From Escherichia coli O157:H7 (GTDB lineage: Bacteria; Pseudomonadota; Gammaproteobacteria; Enterobacterales; Enterobacteriaceae), in the NCBI RefSeq assembly GCF_013167455.1, contig NZ_CP038328.1: 64,000 nt of DNA; one strand, 5' to 3'. Both the position numbers and the translations under genes were made by a program. Shown here piece by piece: positions 11 to 39,070 of the stretch; positions within the stretch are counted from its first letter, which is position 1; every line of letters begins with the position of its first letter. The notes under the pieces were generated by a model that saw only the letters and a list, made by a program, of their open reading frames with translations, was not told the DNA's origin and did no database searches.

Positions 11-3000
11 GTGAGGCGATTGCCGGGGATTTTACTGCTTACTGGAGCCGCGCTCGTTGTGATCGCTGCCCTGCTGGTTAGCGGCCTGCGTATTGCTTTA
101 CCGCATCTTGACGCCTGGCGTCCGGAAATCCTCAACAAAATAGAATCCGCGACTGGCATGCCGGTAGAAGCCAGTCAGCTCTCAGCCAGCTGGCAGAATT
201 TTGGCCCGACGCTTGAAGCGCACGACATCCGTGCAGAACTAAAGGATGGCGGCGAATTTTCGGTTAAACGCGTTACTCTGGCGCTGGATGTCTGGCAGAG
301 CCTGTTACATATGCGCTGGCAGTTTCGCGACCTCACTTTCTGGCAGCTGCGCTTTCGCACCAACACTCCTATCACCAGCGGTGGTAGCGATGACAGTCTG
401 GAAGCCAGTCACATCAGCGATCTGTTTCTTCGTCAATTTGACCATTTCGATCTCCGCGACAGTGAAGTCAGTTTCCTGACGCCATCCGGTCAGCGCGCCG
501 AGCTGGCGATCCCACAACTCACCTGGCTGAACGATCCACGTCGACACCGTGCGGAAGGCCTGGTAAGCCTCTCCAGCCTTACCGGACAGCACGGCGTGAT
601 GCAGGTGCGCATGGATTTGCGCGATGATGAGGGGTTGTTAAGCAATGGTCGCGTCTGGCTCCAGGCGGATGACATCGACCTGAAGCCGTGGCTCGGTAAA
701 TGGATGCAGGACAATATTGCGCTGGAAACGGCGCAGTTCTCCCTTGAAGGCTGGATGACGATCGACAAAGGCGATGTAACCGGCGGTGACGTCTGGCTGA
801 AACAGGGTGGTGCCAGCTGGTTGGGCGAGAAGGAAACGCATACGCTGTCGGTGGATAATCTGACCGCGCATATTACGCGTGAAAATCCGGGATGGCAGTT
901 CTCTATTCCCGATACACGGATCACGATGGACGGCAAACCCTGGCCGAGCGGAGCATTGACGCTGGCCTGGATACCGGAACAGGACGTTGGCGGCAAAGAC
1001 AATAAACGCAGTGACGAACTCCGGATTCGCGCCAGTAATCTGGAGCTGGCAGGCCTGGAGGGCATACGCCCGCTGGCCGCGAAACTTTCACCTGCACTGG
1101 GTGATGTTTGGCGCTCTACACAACCGAGCGGCAAGATTAACACTCTGGCGCTGGATATCCCGCTTCAGGCGGCAGACAAGACCCGTTTTCAGGCATCGTG
1201 GAGCGATCTGGCCTGGAAGCAATGGAAATTATTACCGGGTGCGGAACACTTCTCCGGGACGCTTTCCGGCAGCGTTGAAAATGGTTTGCTTACCGCGTCG
1301 ATGAAGCAGGCAAAGATGCCTTACGAAACGGTATTCCGTGCGCCACTGGAAATCGCCGACGGCCAGGCAACTATAAGCTGGCTGAACAATGACAAAGGTT
1401 TCCAGCTGGATGGGCGTAATATTGACGTTAAAGCCAAAGCCGTCCATGCGCGCGGCGGTTTTCGTTACCTGCAACCTGCTAACGATGAACCCTGGCTGGG
1501 TATTCTGGCTGGCATCAGTACCGATGATGGTTCACAAGCCTGGCGCTATTTCCCGGAAAACTTGATGGGTAAAGACCTGGTTGATTACTTAAGTGGCGCG
1601 ATTCAGGGCGGTGAAGCGGATAACGCGACGCTGGTTTATGGTGGCAATCCGCAACTCTTCCCCTATAAACACAACGAAGGTCAGTTTGAAGTGCTGGTGC
1701 CGCTGCGCAACGCGAAGTTTGCCTTCCAGCCGGACTGGCCTGCATTAACTAACCTTGGTATTGAACTGGACTTTATTAACGACGGTTTATGGATGAAAAC
1801 CGATGGCGTTAATCTGGGCGGCGTGCGCGCGAGTAATCTCACCGCAGTGATCCCTGACTACTCAAAAGAAAAACTGCTGATTGACGCTGACATTAAAGGT
1901 CCGGGTAAAGCCGTTGGCCCTTACTTTGATGAGACACCGCTGAAAGATTCTCTGGGTGCGACCCTGCAAGAACTCCAGCTCGACGGCGATGTGAATGCTC
2001 GCTTACATCTTGATATCCCGCTGAACGGCGAGCTGGTAACCGCGAAAGGTGAAGTGACGCTGCGTAATAACAGTCTGTTTATCAAACCACTCGACAGCAC
2101 CCTGAAAAATTTGAGCGGTAAATTCAGCTTTATCAATGGCGATCTGCAAAGTGAACCACTGACAGCAAGCTGGTTTAATCAGCCGTTGAACGTGGATTTT
2201 TCCACCAAAGAAGGGGCAAAAGCCTACCAGGTCGCGGTGAATCTCAACGGTAACTGGCAACCGGCGAAAACCGGCGTTCTGCCTGCAGCGGTGAACGAAG
2301 CATTGAGTGGCAGCGTGGCGTGGGATGGTAAAGTGGGCATTGTTCTGCCTTATCATGCTGGCGCGACGTATAACGTAGAGCTAAACGGCGATTTGAAGAA
2401 TGTGAGCAGTCACTTACCTTCACCGTTAGCCAAACCTGCGGGTGAACCACTGCCGGTAAACGTTAAGGTTGATGGCAATCTCAACAGCTTTGAATTAACC
2501 GGACAGGCTGGTGCGGATAATCATTTCAATAGCCGCTGGTTGCTCGGTCAAAAGCTGACGCTCGACCGTGCTATTTGGGCGGCAGACAGTAAAACGCTCC
2601 CGCCGTTGCCGGAACAAAGTGGTGTTGAACTCAATATGCCGCCGATGAATGGTGCCGAGTGGCTGGCCCTGTTTCAGAAAGGTGCGGCGGAGAGTGTCGG
2701 TGGTGCAGCGAGTTTCCCACAACACATAACGTTACGTACGCCTATGTTGTCGCTGGGAAATCAGCAATGGAATAACCTGAGTATTGTTTCGCAACCGACG
2801 GCAAATGGCACCCAGGTTGAGGCGCAGGGGCGTGAAATCAACGCCACGCTGGCGATGCGTAATAACGCGCCGTGGCTGGCGAATATCAAATATCTTTATT
2901 ACAACCCGAGCGTGGCGAAAACTCGTGGTGATTCAACGCCGTCATCACCTTTCCCGACAACGGAACGCATTAACTTCCGTGGCTGGTCGGACGCCCAAAT

Positions 3001-9862: not shown

Positions 9863-10135
9863 ATGAATATTTATACCTTTGATTTTGATGAGATTGAGAG
9901 TCAGGAGGATTTTTATCGTGACTTTAGCCAAACCTTTGGTCTGGCGAAAGATAAGGTACGCGATCTCGACTCACTATGGGATGTGTTAATGAACGATGTC
10001 CTGCCGCTACCACTTGAGATTGAATTTGTTCATCTGGGAGAGAAAACGCGTCGCCGTTTTGGCGCGTTAATATTGCTGTTTGATGAGGCAGAGGAAGAGC
10101 TGGAAGGGCATTTGCGTTTTAATGTTCGTCATTAG
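9863..10135 (+). CDS. yhcO: Barstar-like ribonuclease-inhibitor family protein YhcO
   Basis: 90-aa acidic protein ([21 protein letters not shown]...) recognised as YhcO; no barnase-like partner ORF nearby. Confidence 0.8.
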
Positions 10136-35850: not shown

Positions 35851-38187
35851 ATGAAGCAAATTCGTCTGCTGGCGCAGTATTATGTTGACCTGATGATGAA
35901 GTTAGGTCTGGTGCGCTTCTCAATGTTGCTGGCGCTGGCCCTCGTCGTTCTTGCCATTGTGGTACAAATGGCGGTAACCATGGTGCTGCATGGTCAGGTC
36001 GAAAGCATTGATGTTATTCGTTCTATCTTCTTTGGTTTGCTGATTACGCCGTGGGCGGTCTACTTTCTATCGGTGGTCGTCGAGCAACTGGAGGAGTCAC
36101 GACAACGTCTGTCACGGCTGGTGCAAAAACTGGAGGAGATGCGCGAGCGCGATTTGAGCCTCAACGTTCAGTTAAAAGATAATATTGCCCAGCTAAATCA
36201 GGAAATTGCCGTTCGTGAAAAAGCGGAAGCAGAACTGCAGGAAACCTTCGGCCAACTGAAAATTGAAATCAAAGAGCGCGAAGAGACACAAATTCAGCTC
36301 GAGCAGCAATCCTCATTTTTACGTTCCTTCCTTGATGCTTCACCCGACCTGGTTTTTTATCGTAACGAAGATAAAGAGTTTTCCGGCTGTAACCGCGCGA
36401 TGGAGCTGCTGACCGGAAAAAGCGAAAAACAACTGGTTCACCTGAAACCTGCTGATGTTTACTCACCGGAAGCCGCTGCGAAAGTCATTGAAACCGATGA
36501 AAAAGTGTTCCGTCATAATGTGTCACTGACCTATGAGCAGTGGCTGGATTATCCCGACGGACGCAAAGCCTGCTTTGAAATTCGTAAAGTGCCGTACTAC
36601 GACCGCGTGGGTAAACGTCACGGTTTGATGGGCTTTGGTCGCGACATTACCGAGCGTAAGCGGTATCAGGATGCGCTTGAACGCGCCAGCCGCGACAAAA
36701 CGACGTTTATTTCCACCATCAGCCACGAATTGCGTACACCGCTGAACGGTATCGTCGGCCTGAGCCGCATTCTGCTGGATACCGAACTCACCGCCGAGCA
36801 GGAAAAATATCTCAAGACCATCCATGTTTCGGCCGTCACGCTGGGGAATATCTTTAACGATATTATCGACATGGATAAGATGGAACGGCGCAAGGTCCAG
36901 CTTGATAATCAACCGGTTGATTTCACCAGCTTCCTTGCCGATCTGGAAAATCTCTCCGCATTGCAGGCGCAACAAAAAGGATTGCGCTTTAACCTGGAGC
37001 CGACGCTGCCATTACCGCATCAGGTCATTACCGACGGGACGCGTTTACGGCAGATCCTGTGGAACCTCATCAGTAACGCCGTCAAATTCACCCAGCAAGG
37101 CCAGGTTACCGTGCGCGTGCGCTACGATGAAGGCGATATGCTGCATTTTGAAGTGGAAGATTCTGGTATCGGCATTCCGCAGGATGAGCTGGATAAAATC
37201 TTCGCCATGTATTACCAGGTGAAAGACAGTCATGGCGGTAAACCTGCCACCGGCACCGGTATTGGTCTGGCCGTTTCTCGTCGTCTGGCGAAAAATATGG
37301 GCGGCGATATTACGGTTACCAGCGAACAGGGTAAAGGTTCAACCTTTACGTTGACGATCCACGCACCGTCGGTAGCAGAAGAGGTCGATGATGCGTTTGA
37401 TGAAGACGATATGCCTTTACCGGCGCTGAATGTGCTGCTGGTGGAAGACATTGAACTGAACGTGATTGTCGCGCGTTCTGTGCTGGAAAAATTAGGTAAC
37501 AGCGTTGATGTCGCCATGACCGGCAAGGCGGCGCTGGAGATGTTTAAACCGGGCGAATACGACCTGGTGTTGCTGGATATTCAGTTGCCAGATATGACCG
37601 GGCTGGATATCTCTCGTGAACTGACGAAGCGTTATCCGCGAGAGGATTTACCGCCGCTGGTGGCCTTAACCGCTAACGTGCTGAAAGACAAACAAGAGTA
37701 CCTCAATGCTGGAATGGATGATGTGCTGAGTAAGCCGCTTTCTGTTCCGGCGCTAACCGCGATGATCAAGAAATTCTGGGATACCCAGGATGATGAGGAG
37801 AGTACGGTGACGACAGAAGAGAACAGTAAATCAGAAGCATTGCTCGATATTCCCATGCTGGAACAGTATCTCGAACTTGTAGGACCGAAGCTGATCACCG
37901 ACGGGTTAGCGGTGTTTGAGAAGATGATGCCAGGCTATGTCAACGTGCTGGAGTCGAATCTGACGGCGCAGGATAAAAAAGGCATTGTTGAGGAAGGACA
38001 TAAAATTAAAGGTGCGGCGGGGTCAGTGGGGTTGCGCCATCTGCAACAGCTGGGTCAGCAAATTCAGTCTCCTGACCTTCCCGCCTGGGAAGATAACGTC
38101 GGTGAATGGATTGAAGAGATGAAAGAAGAGTGGCGTCACGACGTAGAAGTGCTGAAAGCGTGGGTGGCAAAAGCCACTAAAAAATGA
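35851..38187 (+). CDS. arcB: Hybrid sensor histidine kinase ArcB
   Basis: 778 aa; two N-terminal TM helices, PAS, H-box SHELRTPLN, HATPase, receiver and C-terminal HPt domains. Confidence 0.95.
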   Translation: MKQIRLLAQYYVDLMMKLGLVRFSMLLALALVVLAIVVQMAVTMVLHGQVESIDVIRSIFFGLLITPWAVYFLSVVVEQLEESRQRLSRLVQKLEEMRERDLSLNVQLKDNIAQLNQEIAVREKAEAELQETFGQLKIEIKEREETQIQLEQQSSFLRSFLDASPDLVFYRNEDKEFSGCNRAMELLTGKSEKQLVHLKPADVYSPEAAAKVIETDEKVFRHNVSLTYEQWLDYPDGRKACFEIRKVPYYDRVGKRHGLMGFGRDITERKRYQDALERASRDKTTFISTISHELRTPLNGIVGLSRILLDTELTAEQEKYLKTIHVSAVTLGNIFNDIIDMDKMERRKVQLDNQPVDFTSFLADLENLSALQAQQKGLRFNLEPTLPLPHQVITDGTRLRQILWNLISNAVKFTQQGQVTVRVRYDEGDMLHFEVEDSGIGIPQDELDKIFAMYYQVKDSHGGKPATGTGIGLAVSRRLAKNMGGDITVTSEQGKGSTFTLTIHAPSVAEEVDDAFDEDDMPLPALNVLLVEDIELNVIVARSVLEKLGNSVDVAMTGKAALEMFKPGEYDLVLLDIQLPDMTGLDISRELTKRYPREDLPPLVALTANVLKDKQEYLNAGMDDVLSKPLSVPALTAMIKKFWDTQDDEESTVTTEENSKSEALLDIPMLEQYLELVGPKLITDGLAVFEKMMPGYVNVLESNLTAQDKKGIVEEGHKIKGAAGSVGLRHLQQLGQQIQSPDLPAWEDNVGEWIEEMKEEWRHDVEVLKAWVAKATKK

Positions 38188-38299
38188 CCCCGGCTAGACC
38201 GGGGTGCGCGAATACTGCGCCAACACCAGGGAAATCTTGGCTGCGCCGTAAATTATTATGATGAGTTACAAGGGCACTGCACTGTTTTTCAGGCCGCAC
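38179..38299 (-). ncRNA. arcZ: Hfq-dependent small RNA ArcZ (SraH/RyhA)
   Basis: minus-strand sequence GTGCGGCCTGAAAAACAGTGC...GGCGCAGCCAAGATTTCCCTGGTGTTGGCGCAGTATTCGCGCACCCCGGTCTAGCCGGGGTCATTTTTT matches ArcZ as I recall it; 3' hairpin plus U-run overlaps the arcB stop codon. Confidence 0.8.
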
Positions 38300-38416
38300 G
38301 CAGTTAAGATAGCAAAACTTAAATGATTTGTTACATGAATCAGTTAAATGTGTGATGCGTACCATTTTTATTAAAAAAATTAATGTGTTTCAGTCAATTG
38401 CGAAAGGATGATCATA

Positions 38417-39070
38417 ATGAAGAAAATTGGCGTAATTCTGAGCGGATGCGGCGTCTATGACGGTTCTGAAATTCATGAAGCGGTGTTGACGTTGTTAGCT
38501 ATTTCACGCAGCGGTGCGCAGGCGGTCTGCTTTGCACCGGATAAGCAGCAGGTTGATGTTATCAATCATTTAACTGGCGAAGCGATGACGGAAACGCGCA
38601 ATGTGCTGATTGAAGCGGCACGAATAACGCGCGGTGAAATCCGTCCTCTGGCCCAGGCCGATGCCGCTGAACTGGATGCGTTGATTGTGCCGGGGGGGTT
38701 TGGCGCGGCAAAGAATTTAAGCAATTTTGCCAGTCTTGGTCGCGAATGCACCGTTGACCGTGAATTAAAGGCGCTGGCACAAGCGATGCATCAGGCCGGA
38801 AAACCGCTTGGTTTTATGTGTATTGCCCCGGCGATGCTGCCGAAAATTTTCGATTTCCCGCTGCGTTTGACCATCGGTACTGATATCGATACCGCAGAAG
38901 TGCTGGAAGAGATGGGCGCGGAGCATGTGCCGTGTCCTGTCGATGATATCGTGGTTGATGAAGACAATAAGATTGTCACCACCCCGGCATATATGCTGGC
39001 GCAGAACATTGCAGAAGCGGCGAGCGGCATTGATAAGCTGGTTTCCCGCGTGCTGGTTCTGGCTGAATGA
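38417..39070 (+). CDS. elbB: Glyoxalase ElbB (DJ-1/PfpI family)
   Basis: 217 aa from ATG 38417 ([21 protein letters not shown]...). Confidence 0.85.

Follow-up and report, generated by a model that had tools for sequence, protein, structure and literature searches.

The arcZ small RNA gene in its usual place beside arcB on an Escherichia coli O157:H7-type chromosome

We analysed a window of 64,000 nt from E. coli O157:H7 and conclude, with a probability of about 97%, that the minus-strand segment between arcB and elbB is the arcZ gene of an O157:H7-type chromosome, a known small RNA in its usual place. No evidence opposes this identification. Descriptions of ArcZ, of how it is processed, of its targets, and of its convergent overlap with arcB date from 2001-2010 onward, with a review in 2024 (PMC11331407), and its presence beside arcB is an ordinary, already known finding. 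The features discussed below are collected in Table 1.

Table 1. Features of the arcZ locus in window coordinates; nt numbers count from the arcZ +1
Feature	Position	Strand	Basis or remark
arcB, sensor histidine kinase, convergent partner of arcZ	35851..38187	+	ORF, NCBIfam, and RefSeq (identical O157:H7 genome); stop TGA at 38185-38187
arcZ gene (SraH/RyhA)	38179..38299	-	121-nt primary transcript, +1 = G at 38299; Rfam and K-12 identity
Terminator tail CAUUUUUU, presumed Hfq-binding U-tail	38179..38186	-	terminator scan and sequence reading
Rho-independent terminator hairpin ACCCCGGUCUAGCCGGGGU	38187..38205	-	8-pair stem; sole terminator-like site in 37900-38700
Processed 56-nt ArcZ (active form), nt 66-121	38179..38234	-	predicted, by count from the annotated 3' end and PMC11331407
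Conserved seed CCCUGGUGUUGGCGCA, nt 69-84	38216..38231	-	exact match to the motif in PMC11331407
Putative RNase E recognition motif GA↓UUU, nt 64-68, cut at 65/66	38232..38236	-	fit to the R-N↓W-U-U consensus
Precursor 5' stem-loop, in which nt 20-27 pair with 53-60; discarded on processing	38240..38280	-	Rfam consensus and local fold
Putative arcZ promoter: GTAACA (38334-38329), 17-nt spacer, TGC-TATCTT (38314-38306)	38306..38334	-	read by eye
elbB, other flank, divergent from arcZ	38417..39070	+	NCBIfam NF008747 (ElbB), 356.9 bits

Identity and setting of arcZ

A covariance-model search of the window returned a match to Rfam RF00081 (ArcZ) that scored 117.6 bits (gathering score 66; E 2.9e-26), far above chance expectation, with an alignment spanning the entire model (1-106 of 106) at 38299..38192 on the minus strand. 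The preliminary description had recognized ArcZ on this strand between arcB and elbB; this is borne out by a score nearly twice the gathering score and by alignment to the experimentally characterized K-12 gene (b4450), which has the same length and agrees at 120 of 121 bases, with zero mismatches in the conserved 3' seed region. The K-12 arcZ annotation, 3350577-3350697, is the base-for-base counterpart of window 38179-38299. Across complete E. coli genomes, the arcZ locus was found in 5416 of 5426.

Both flanking genes are as expected from K-12, in which the annotated order is likewise arcB, arcZ, elbB. ArcB matched the NCBIfam equivalog NF008302 over residues 1-778 (1483 bits, cutoff 838), and the RefSeq start of elbB corresponds to window 38417. 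The last 9 nt of arcB (38179-38187) overlap arcZ on the opposite strand, so that the two genes form a 3'-overlapping convergent cis-antisense pair, confirming at the gene level the convergence and 3'-end overlap first noted from the sequence. That this arrangement is a known one, as had also been stated, is clear from K-12, where arcZ and the opposite-strand arcB (3350689-3353025) overlap by 9 nt in the same geometry, and from the reported overlap of ~10 bases (PMC11331407, PMC4152358). The K-12 gene thus shares with the one described here its locus, 121-nt length, 9-nt arcB overlap, 56-nt form, seed, RNase E motif, and terminator, and differs by a single substitution, U22A, that is typical of O157:H7-type genomes.

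The annotations of the two genomes differ as well. K-12 lists arcZ, whereas in an identical O157:H7 genome the RefSeq/PGAP annotation lacks the gene and is empty between arcB and elbB, in keeping with the earlier remark that the ORF track does not show it. In ORF-based tracks the interval is either blank or filled by a spurious 62-aa ORF; labelling arcZ requires a covariance-model search.

Upstream of arcZ, a putative promoter ends 6 nt before the +1 at 38299 and scores 8/12, with an additional TGn extended -10. A consensus promoter scan of 37900-38700 found no site reaching its threshold of 9/12; the putative arcZ promoter was missed because its score falls below that threshold. The 121 nt upstream of the +1 are the same as in K-12 except for one base adjoining the elbB start codon. 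On this reading of the sequence, the 121-nt minus-strand transcript would be driven by a sigma-70-type promoter that lies ~10-35 bp upstream of 38299.

The terminator hairpin and the arcB stop codon

Termination of the transcript would be intrinsic, at a hairpin that adjoins the arcB stop and is followed by a U-tail complementing the last two lysine codons of arcB. The hairpin sequence, accccggctagaccggggt on the plus strand, is present once in the window, at 38187-38205. A consensus terminator scan placed the minus-strand stem at 38205..38187 with the tail CATTTTTTAG, and CATTTTTT directly follows the 8-pair stem. The hairpin and the arcB stop overlap by a single base, A38187, where the last base of the minus-strand hairpin complements the A of the TGA and the closing A-U pair is formed. 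The tail CAUUUUUU (38186-38179) complements the arcB codons AAA AAA (Lys-Lys) and the TG of the stop.

These positions qualify the preliminary description of a hairpin that sits on the arcB stop and is shared by the two transcripts. The overlap with the stop is real, though limited to position 38187, and it is the U-tail rather than the hairpin that covers the remaining stop bases. Likewise, a palindrome does lie between the convergent units, but the U-tract is on the ArcZ strand only. That both transcription units terminate at this hairpin is unsupported, because only the ArcZ strand carries the U-tract and the stop overlap is a single base. Bidirectional intrinsic terminators resemble this site in having one GC-rich palindromic hairpin between two convergent transcription units. 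In those, the stem is flanked by an A-tract on its 5' side and a U-tract on its 3' side, which gives a U-tail on both strands, whereas here the plus strand goes on with GCGCGAAUACUG, and a stem-loop with a U-tract was found on the minus strand alone. The consensus scan found no plus-strand terminator in 37900-38700, and a search of the literature found no papers that describe a bidirectional terminator at arcZ.

The near-palindromic hairpin could also fold in the plus-strand transcript, where its first base is the final A of the arcB stop, and the region might then be nothing other than the arcB 3' UTR with its terminator, lacking an independent minus-strand RNA gene. We regard this as extremely improbable. 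The plus-strand sequence after the hairpin, GCGCGAATACTG, contains no T run, and the scan of 37900-38700 yielded no terminator in that direction, while the minus strand matches the full-length ArcZ covariance model. An arcB 3' UTR would also not explain why distant Enterobacterales keep the 16-nt seed together with its flanks while the 5' half drifts. In K-12, arcZ is annotated at the same place, and a mapped transcription start has been cited (PMC11331407). Since the U-tail lies only on the ArcZ strand, arcB transcripts would presumably extend into sequence antisense to arcZ, which would be consistent with the antisense proposal in PMC11331407.

The processed 3' part and its conservation

In K-12 and Salmonella, Hfq binds the 3' region of ArcZ and processing by RNase E yields a stable 56-nt form (PMC11331407); the RNase E rule RN↓WUU and the ArcZ seed motif used here are from the same source. 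The corresponding 56-nt 3' part in the window starts with UUUCCC directly after GA and is 100% identical to K-12. At the sequence level, the exact 16-mer seed follows the GA↓UUU site within nt 64-84, and the RNase E motif, seed, terminator, and U-tail all fall within the K-12-identical stretch 38179-38234.

To describe conservation of the locus, genome contigs were scanned for the 16-mer seed, which gave 120 matches, and loci were kept only if GCGC[AG]CCCC lay downstream. Many of the 120 matches were chance occurrences in unrelated GC-rich genomes and were excluded by this requirement. The resulting set comprised the window and 56 other arcB-linked Enterobacterales loci in which the same seed adjoins arcB, and the arcZ seed is convergent with arcB in 57/57. 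The arcB stop directly abuts the hairpin in 44 of these, with an overlap of 9-11 nt. The 13 loci without an abutting stop include two (L063 and L068) for which automatic extension to the stop codon gave implausible positions inside ArcZ, which we treated as script artefacts. In ~12 loci, the arcB stop lies a few to ~15 nt past the U-tract, hence there is no overlap, as has also been reported for Pectobacterium (PMC11331407). Tatumella and Pantoea are examples in which the stop is displaced by 15 nt. A run of at least five T was present in every arcB-linked locus examined. In most Enterobacterales sampled, the same bases are thus used twice, as the Lys-Lys-stop codons of arcB and as the U-tail of the ArcZ terminator. 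As side observations, Mixta carries a second ArcZ-like module that may be transcribed, and in Serratia oryzae the 5' UTR of an ADP-ribosylglycohydrolase is a candidate for repression by ArcZ.

The terminator stem is maintained in spite of sequence change: 99.4% of cells in the alignment were paired, compared with 29-45% in slid controls, and three of the eight pairs showed compensatory changes (GG/CC, AA/UU, AG/CU) across 48 sequences. Between orthologues, 42% of bases are shared over the 5' nt 1-64 and 87% over nt 85-121. ArcZ orthologues in Salmonella, Dickeya, Erwinia, Photorhabdus/Xenorhabdus, Serratia, Yersinia, and others keep the seed, the GCGCACCCC stretch, the hairpin, and the U-tail, and differ in diverging 5' halves and in hairpin stems with compensatory changes. 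This pattern, in which the 3' part is kept and the 5' part diverges, fits what would be expected of a processed 3' effector.

The conservation pattern also bears on whether the minus-strand transcript might be a small mRNA as well as, or instead of, a small RNA. The ORF listing contains a 62-aa ORF on this strand, 38177-38365, starting from an ATG at 38365, and the same frame is open without a stop from ArcZ nt 1 (a GUG at the +1, 40 codons) to nt 120. In RIBOseq of O157:H7 EDL933, ArcZ had many footprints and a ribosomal coverage value of 1.14, and that study uses arcZ as its example of a high-coverage ncRNA (PMC5331693). Hfq-protected fragments may, however, mimic ribosome footprints. The ATG lies upstream of the annotated transcription start, and the transcript lacks an in-frame stop because the UAG (38179-38177) extends past the annotated 3' end. 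The 62-aa product had no NCBIfam match. Upstream of the seed, the frame is open in 11 of 47 species, compared with 14 and 10 for the other two frames, in a 5' half that is poorly conserved. We therefore rejected the ORF as coding, given the absence of a family match and of frame conservation, and consider a small mRNA very unlikely.

The U22A difference and the proposed regulatory role

The sole difference from K-12, U22A at window 38278, falls in the 5' stem-loop of the precursor. It breaks the U22-A58 pair, and the Rfam alignment marks a non-canonical pair at this point. The local stem-loop is predicted to fold at -8.8 kcal/mol with A22 compared to -13.9 kcal/mol with U22, ~5 kcal/mol weaker, although minimum free energy (MFE) differences this large fall within prediction uncertainty. 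With the 5' stem-loop weakened in this way, folding of the precursor may differ from that in K-12. The two alleles also differ in the topology of the full-length MFE fold, and the probability that the seed is unpaired is predicted to rise from 0.37 to 0.49. The allele was found in 297 of 5402 complete E. coli genomes, and all 60 U22A genomes among the matches listed were O157:H7-type.

It is conceivable, then, that ArcZ is present but that U22A measurably alters precursor folding and RNase E processing, giving an output that differs from K-12. The lost pair, the change in predicted stability and topology, and the lineage distribution of the allele point in this direction, and there is a precedent in Dickeya solani, where a natural G90A substitution alone abolishes ArcZ processing (10.1101/2021.07.19.452942). 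G90A, however, sits in the conserved 3' region and not in the 5' half, whereas the base changed here is 43 nt from the cleavage site, in the poorly conserved half that is discarded. No change affects the RNase E motif, the seed, or the 3' module, and abundant ArcZ RNA-seq reads have been reported in EDL933 (PMC5331693). We therefore judge a measurable effect of this kind to be unlikely. The fold predictions leave room for an effect of U22A on the efficiency with which the 56-nt form is released by RNase E and Hfq in the O157:H7 lineage, but we consider this improbable. If it occurred, enterohaemorrhagic E. coli would have an ArcZ/RpoS/ArcB set-point unlike that of K-12.

By analogy with the literature, ArcZ at this locus would act through its processed form. 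Hfq bound to the 3' part, together with an RNase E cut at GA↓UUU (nt 65/66), would give the stable 56-nt form, and its single-stranded seed CCCUGGUGUUGGCGCA would pair with target mRNAs. Translation of rpoS would be activated by opening of the inhibitory leader hairpin, and the repressed targets would include flhDC, mutS, tpx, and sdaC. At low oxygen, phosphorylated ArcA would repress arcZ transcription. ArcZ would in turn lower arcB expression, and an antisense action of arcB mRNA on ArcZ has been proposed; repression by phosphorylated ArcA and mutual repression of ArcZ and arcB have been described previously (PMC11331407, PMC4152358). Such mutual negative feedback would link redox sensing to the general stress response, and the convergent 3' overlap with arcB may be the physical basis of the cis-antisense part of the loop.

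Predicted pairing of processed ArcZ with the K-12 rpoS leader was examined with RNAduplex. In unrestricted runs, the published site was not recovered and the predictions were no better than shuffles. Against the 600-nt leader, RNAduplex picked GC-rich sites inside nlpD, and shuffled sequences scored equal or better in 190/300 and 289/300 cases; against leader positions -150..+3, shuffles were equal or better in 315/500. Only when the search was limited to -130..-86 did ArcZ nt 66-92 pair with leader -121..-98 at -15.8 kcal/mol, a result that is not evidence in itself. Among other regulators of rpoS, DsrA and RprA resemble ArcZ in being Hfq-dependent and in pairing with the upstream arm of the inhibitory leader hairpin (PMC4152358). 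They are unrelated to it in sequence and locus, and ArcZ is set apart from both by its need for an RNase E cut for activity and by its linkage in cis to the arcB 3' end (PMC11331407, PMC4152358).

ArcZ and its junction with arcB

A scan of the entire window against Rfam 15 returned two matches at the gathering threshold. One was ArcZ (RF00081; 38299..38192, minus strand, 117.6 bits versus a gathering score of 66, E 2.9e-26), with all 106 model positions taken in. The other was the enterobacterial greA leader (RF01769; 59799-59920, plus strand, full-length, 127.5 bits versus a gathering score of 60), whose 3' end consists of a hairpin and a U-run. In the K-12 MG1655 record, arcZ (b4450) occupies 3350577-3350697 and arcB 3350689-3353025 on the other strand, an overlap of 9 nt. 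Over a 271-nt alignment at the locus, the window and K-12 were identical except at two bases: arcZ nt 22 (window 38278), which is U in K-12 and A in the window, and window 38415, 2 nt upstream of the ATG annotated for elbB, where the minus strand has A here and G in K-12. Because of this agreement, the interval in the preliminary description, 38179-38299, is the K-12 gene projected exactly on the window. The assignment of the minus strand between arcB and elbB to ArcZ is thus supported by both the Rfam match and the alignment, in which the single arcZ mismatch, at nt 22, falls outside the seed at nt 69-84. This is a known feature in its textbook arrangement.

The product of the 778-aa ORF ending at the junction matches the ArcB equivalog NF008302 (NCBIfam) end to end (1483 bits versus a cutoff of 838). 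Around the junction, the plus strand reads ...AAA GCC ACT AAA AAA TGA CCCCGGCTAGACCGGGGT GCGCGAATACTGCGCC... The hairpin string that had been placed on the arcB stop is found at a single place in the window, 38187-38205, and the TGA lies at 38185-38187; the two share one base, while the rest of the stop is covered by the U-tail rather than the hairpin. On the minus strand, CAUUUUUU (38186-38179) comes next after the hairpin and is the complement of the other two stop bases and the two final arcB lysine codons. On the plus strand, the bases after the hairpin are GCGCGAAUACUG and include no U run, and a consensus scan of 37900-38700 found one terminator-like site, on the minus strand. Since the U-run is present on the minus strand alone, the hairpin reads as a terminator for the ArcZ strand only, and its sharing by both transcripts as a two-way terminator is not supported. 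The convergence of ArcZ and arcB with overlapping 3' ends was borne out by the K-12 annotation and by the position of the ArcZ 3' end within the arcB coding sequence. That the region is instead a plain arcB 3' UTR or terminator is excluded by the U-tract on the opposite strand, the covariance-model match, and the pattern of conservation.

Of 5426 complete E. coli genomes, 5416 contained the locus, and the 321 nt around it were 100% identical to many O157:H7 chromosomes. This 321-nt query had no match in the other 10 genomes; a few complete genomes had two copies of the junction, and one plasmid record among the assemblies searched carried a copy of the arcB-arcZ-elbB junction. In L002, an identical O157:H7 locus (NZ_AP018488.1, 1588-1818, equivalent to window 38187-38417), RefSeq/PGAP shows no feature between arcB and elbB, and arcZ is unannotated although it is listed in K-12. 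For elbB, the ORF listing uses an upstream in-frame ATG at 38408 (220 aa), while the start codon in RefSeq and in K-12 is the one at 38417 (217 aa).

Anatomy of the RNA and the U22A substitution

Features of the arcB-arcZ-elbB junction and of the 121-nt ArcZ RNA
Feature	Position	Strand	Remarks
arcB	35851-38187	+	sole long ORF ending at junction; 778 aa
elbB	RefSeq start at 38417	+	ElbB NF008747, 356.9 bits; next plus-strand gene
5' stem-loop	ArcZ nt 20-27 paired with 53-60	-	
GA↓UUU	ArcZ nt 64-68	-	fits RNase E rule R-N↓W-U-U (PMC11331407)
Conserved seed CCCUGGUGUUGGCGCA	ArcZ nt 69-84	-	
GCGC/GCGC short hairpin	ArcZ	-	
Terminator hairpin	ArcZ nt 95-113	-	
U6 tail	ArcZ 3' end	-	

Cleavage between nt 65 and 66, following the RNase E rule quoted in a 2024 review (PMC11331407), would leave exactly 56 nt (window 38179-38234), and the active form of ArcZ has a reported size of 56 nt (PMC11331407). 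In L117, the locus of a species-representative 'E. coli' genome (SCPM-O-B-8794, 10072-10128), G replaces A before the UUU of this site (AAGGUUU versus AAGAUUU), with the rule still met, and the terminator loop is UUUAG versus UCUAG. A promoter scan of 37900-38700 gave no site above threshold; read relative to the annotated +1, a putative arcZ promoter would comprise GTAACA, a 17-nt spacer, and TGcTATCTT at 38334-38306.

The minus-strand RNA is very improbably the mRNA of a small protein. A mechanical ORF of 62 aa (38177-38365, minus strand) spans the putative arcZ promoter and all of ArcZ, its frame is open from a GUG at +1 to the last ArcZ base, and RIBOseq footprints were reported to cover ArcZ heavily in EDL933 (PMC5331693). 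However, the 62-aa product has no family match, its UAG stop extends beyond the 3' end of the ArcZ transcript, and only 11 of 47 species keep this frame open, which does not set it apart from the remaining two.

Within ArcZ, U22A breaks the U22-A58 pair of the 5' stem-loop, marked non-canonical by cmscan. The predicted stability of this stem-loop changes from -13.9 (U22) to -8.8 kcal/mol (A22), and the predicted full-length fold is altered. Of 5402 complete E. coli genomes, 297 have the allele; every one of the 60 carriers among the matches listed is O157:H7-type, EDL933 and Sakai included. A single natural substitution blocks ArcZ processing in Dickeya solani (10.1101/2021.07.19.452942), but it lies in the conserved 3' region, whereas U22A lies in the half that is variable and discarded. 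EDL933 yields abundant ArcZ reads (PMC5331693). A functional effect of U22A is possible but unlikely.

Conservation across Enterobacterales and proposed mechanism

Scanning one genome per species with the 16-nt seed yielded 120 stretches, many of them chance matches in unrelated genomes. Of 58 sites passing the downstream filter (GCGC[AG]CCCC 3' of the seed), 57 also encode the ArcB C-terminus, namely the window and 56 other Enterobacterales loci, all of them with arcB convergent to the seed-bearing strand. The arcB stop (TGA or TAA) directly follows the hairpin in 44/57, with a U-tract/CDS overlap of 9-11 nt, and lies a few to ~15 nt further on in most of the remainder; two loci with implausible stop positions were regarded as script artefacts. 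This pattern agrees with the published description of a ten-base arcZ-arcB overlap as the usual case, with exceptions (PMC11331407). When 48 sequences of the processed part were aligned, the terminator stem was paired in 99.4% of cells, compared to 29-45% with slid partner columns, and three of its eight pairs had changed in a compensatory way (two from G-C to A-U, the third from C-G to U-A). The seed is invariant by construction in this alignment and is uninformative on conservation; with it excluded, the window's base was common to 87% of species at nt 85-121 versus 42% at nt 1-64, as expected if the 3' part is the effector.

At the sequence level, then, the minus strand carries an independently terminated RNA gene that has a motif for RNase E and a conserved, single-stranded seed and whose 3' end falls within the coding sequence of arcB. 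In published work, ArcZ is bound by Hfq and cut by RNase E to give the 56-nt form, which switches on translation of rpoS and down-regulates several further mRNAs; arcZ itself is repressed by ArcA-P at low oxygen; ArcZ lowers arcB expression as a cis-encoded 3'-end antisense RNA, and arcB mRNA is proposed to destabilise ArcZ in turn (PMC11331407, PMC4152358). RNAduplex runs of ArcZ against the rpoS leader did no better than shuffles; only when confined to the known region did they return a predicted duplex there, of ArcZ nt 66-92 with leader -121..-98 (-15.8 kcal/mol). Because the plus strand has no U-tract after the hairpin, we infer that arcB transcripts may continue across the arcZ antisense region, which would supply the long complementarity required by the antisense model.

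ArcZ-like sequences were also seen elsewhere. In Mixta sp. Marseille-Q2659, a second ArcZ-3'-like module (L086, 1746-1795) comprises, in order, the seed, GATGCGCACCCC, a CCCGC/GCGGG hairpin, and T8; it is intergenic and away from arcB, directly 3' of the gene for an IS1 transposase (PF03400). Both this module and the arcB-linked copy of the same genome (L087) score below the Rfam ArcZ gathering score. In Serratia oryzae (L050, NZ_MOXD01000004.1), a 23-nt stretch at 1255-1277, ACAATTTCCCTGGTGTTGGCGCA, is identical to part of the species' own ArcZ (compare its locus L049); a gene for an ADP-ribosylglycohydrolase (PF03747, 217 bits) lies on the opposite strand, with its ATG a few nt further downstream in that gene's direction. 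Given this orientation, the 5' UTR of the mRNA would contain a perfect complement of the ArcZ seed, a candidate strong ArcZ target site.
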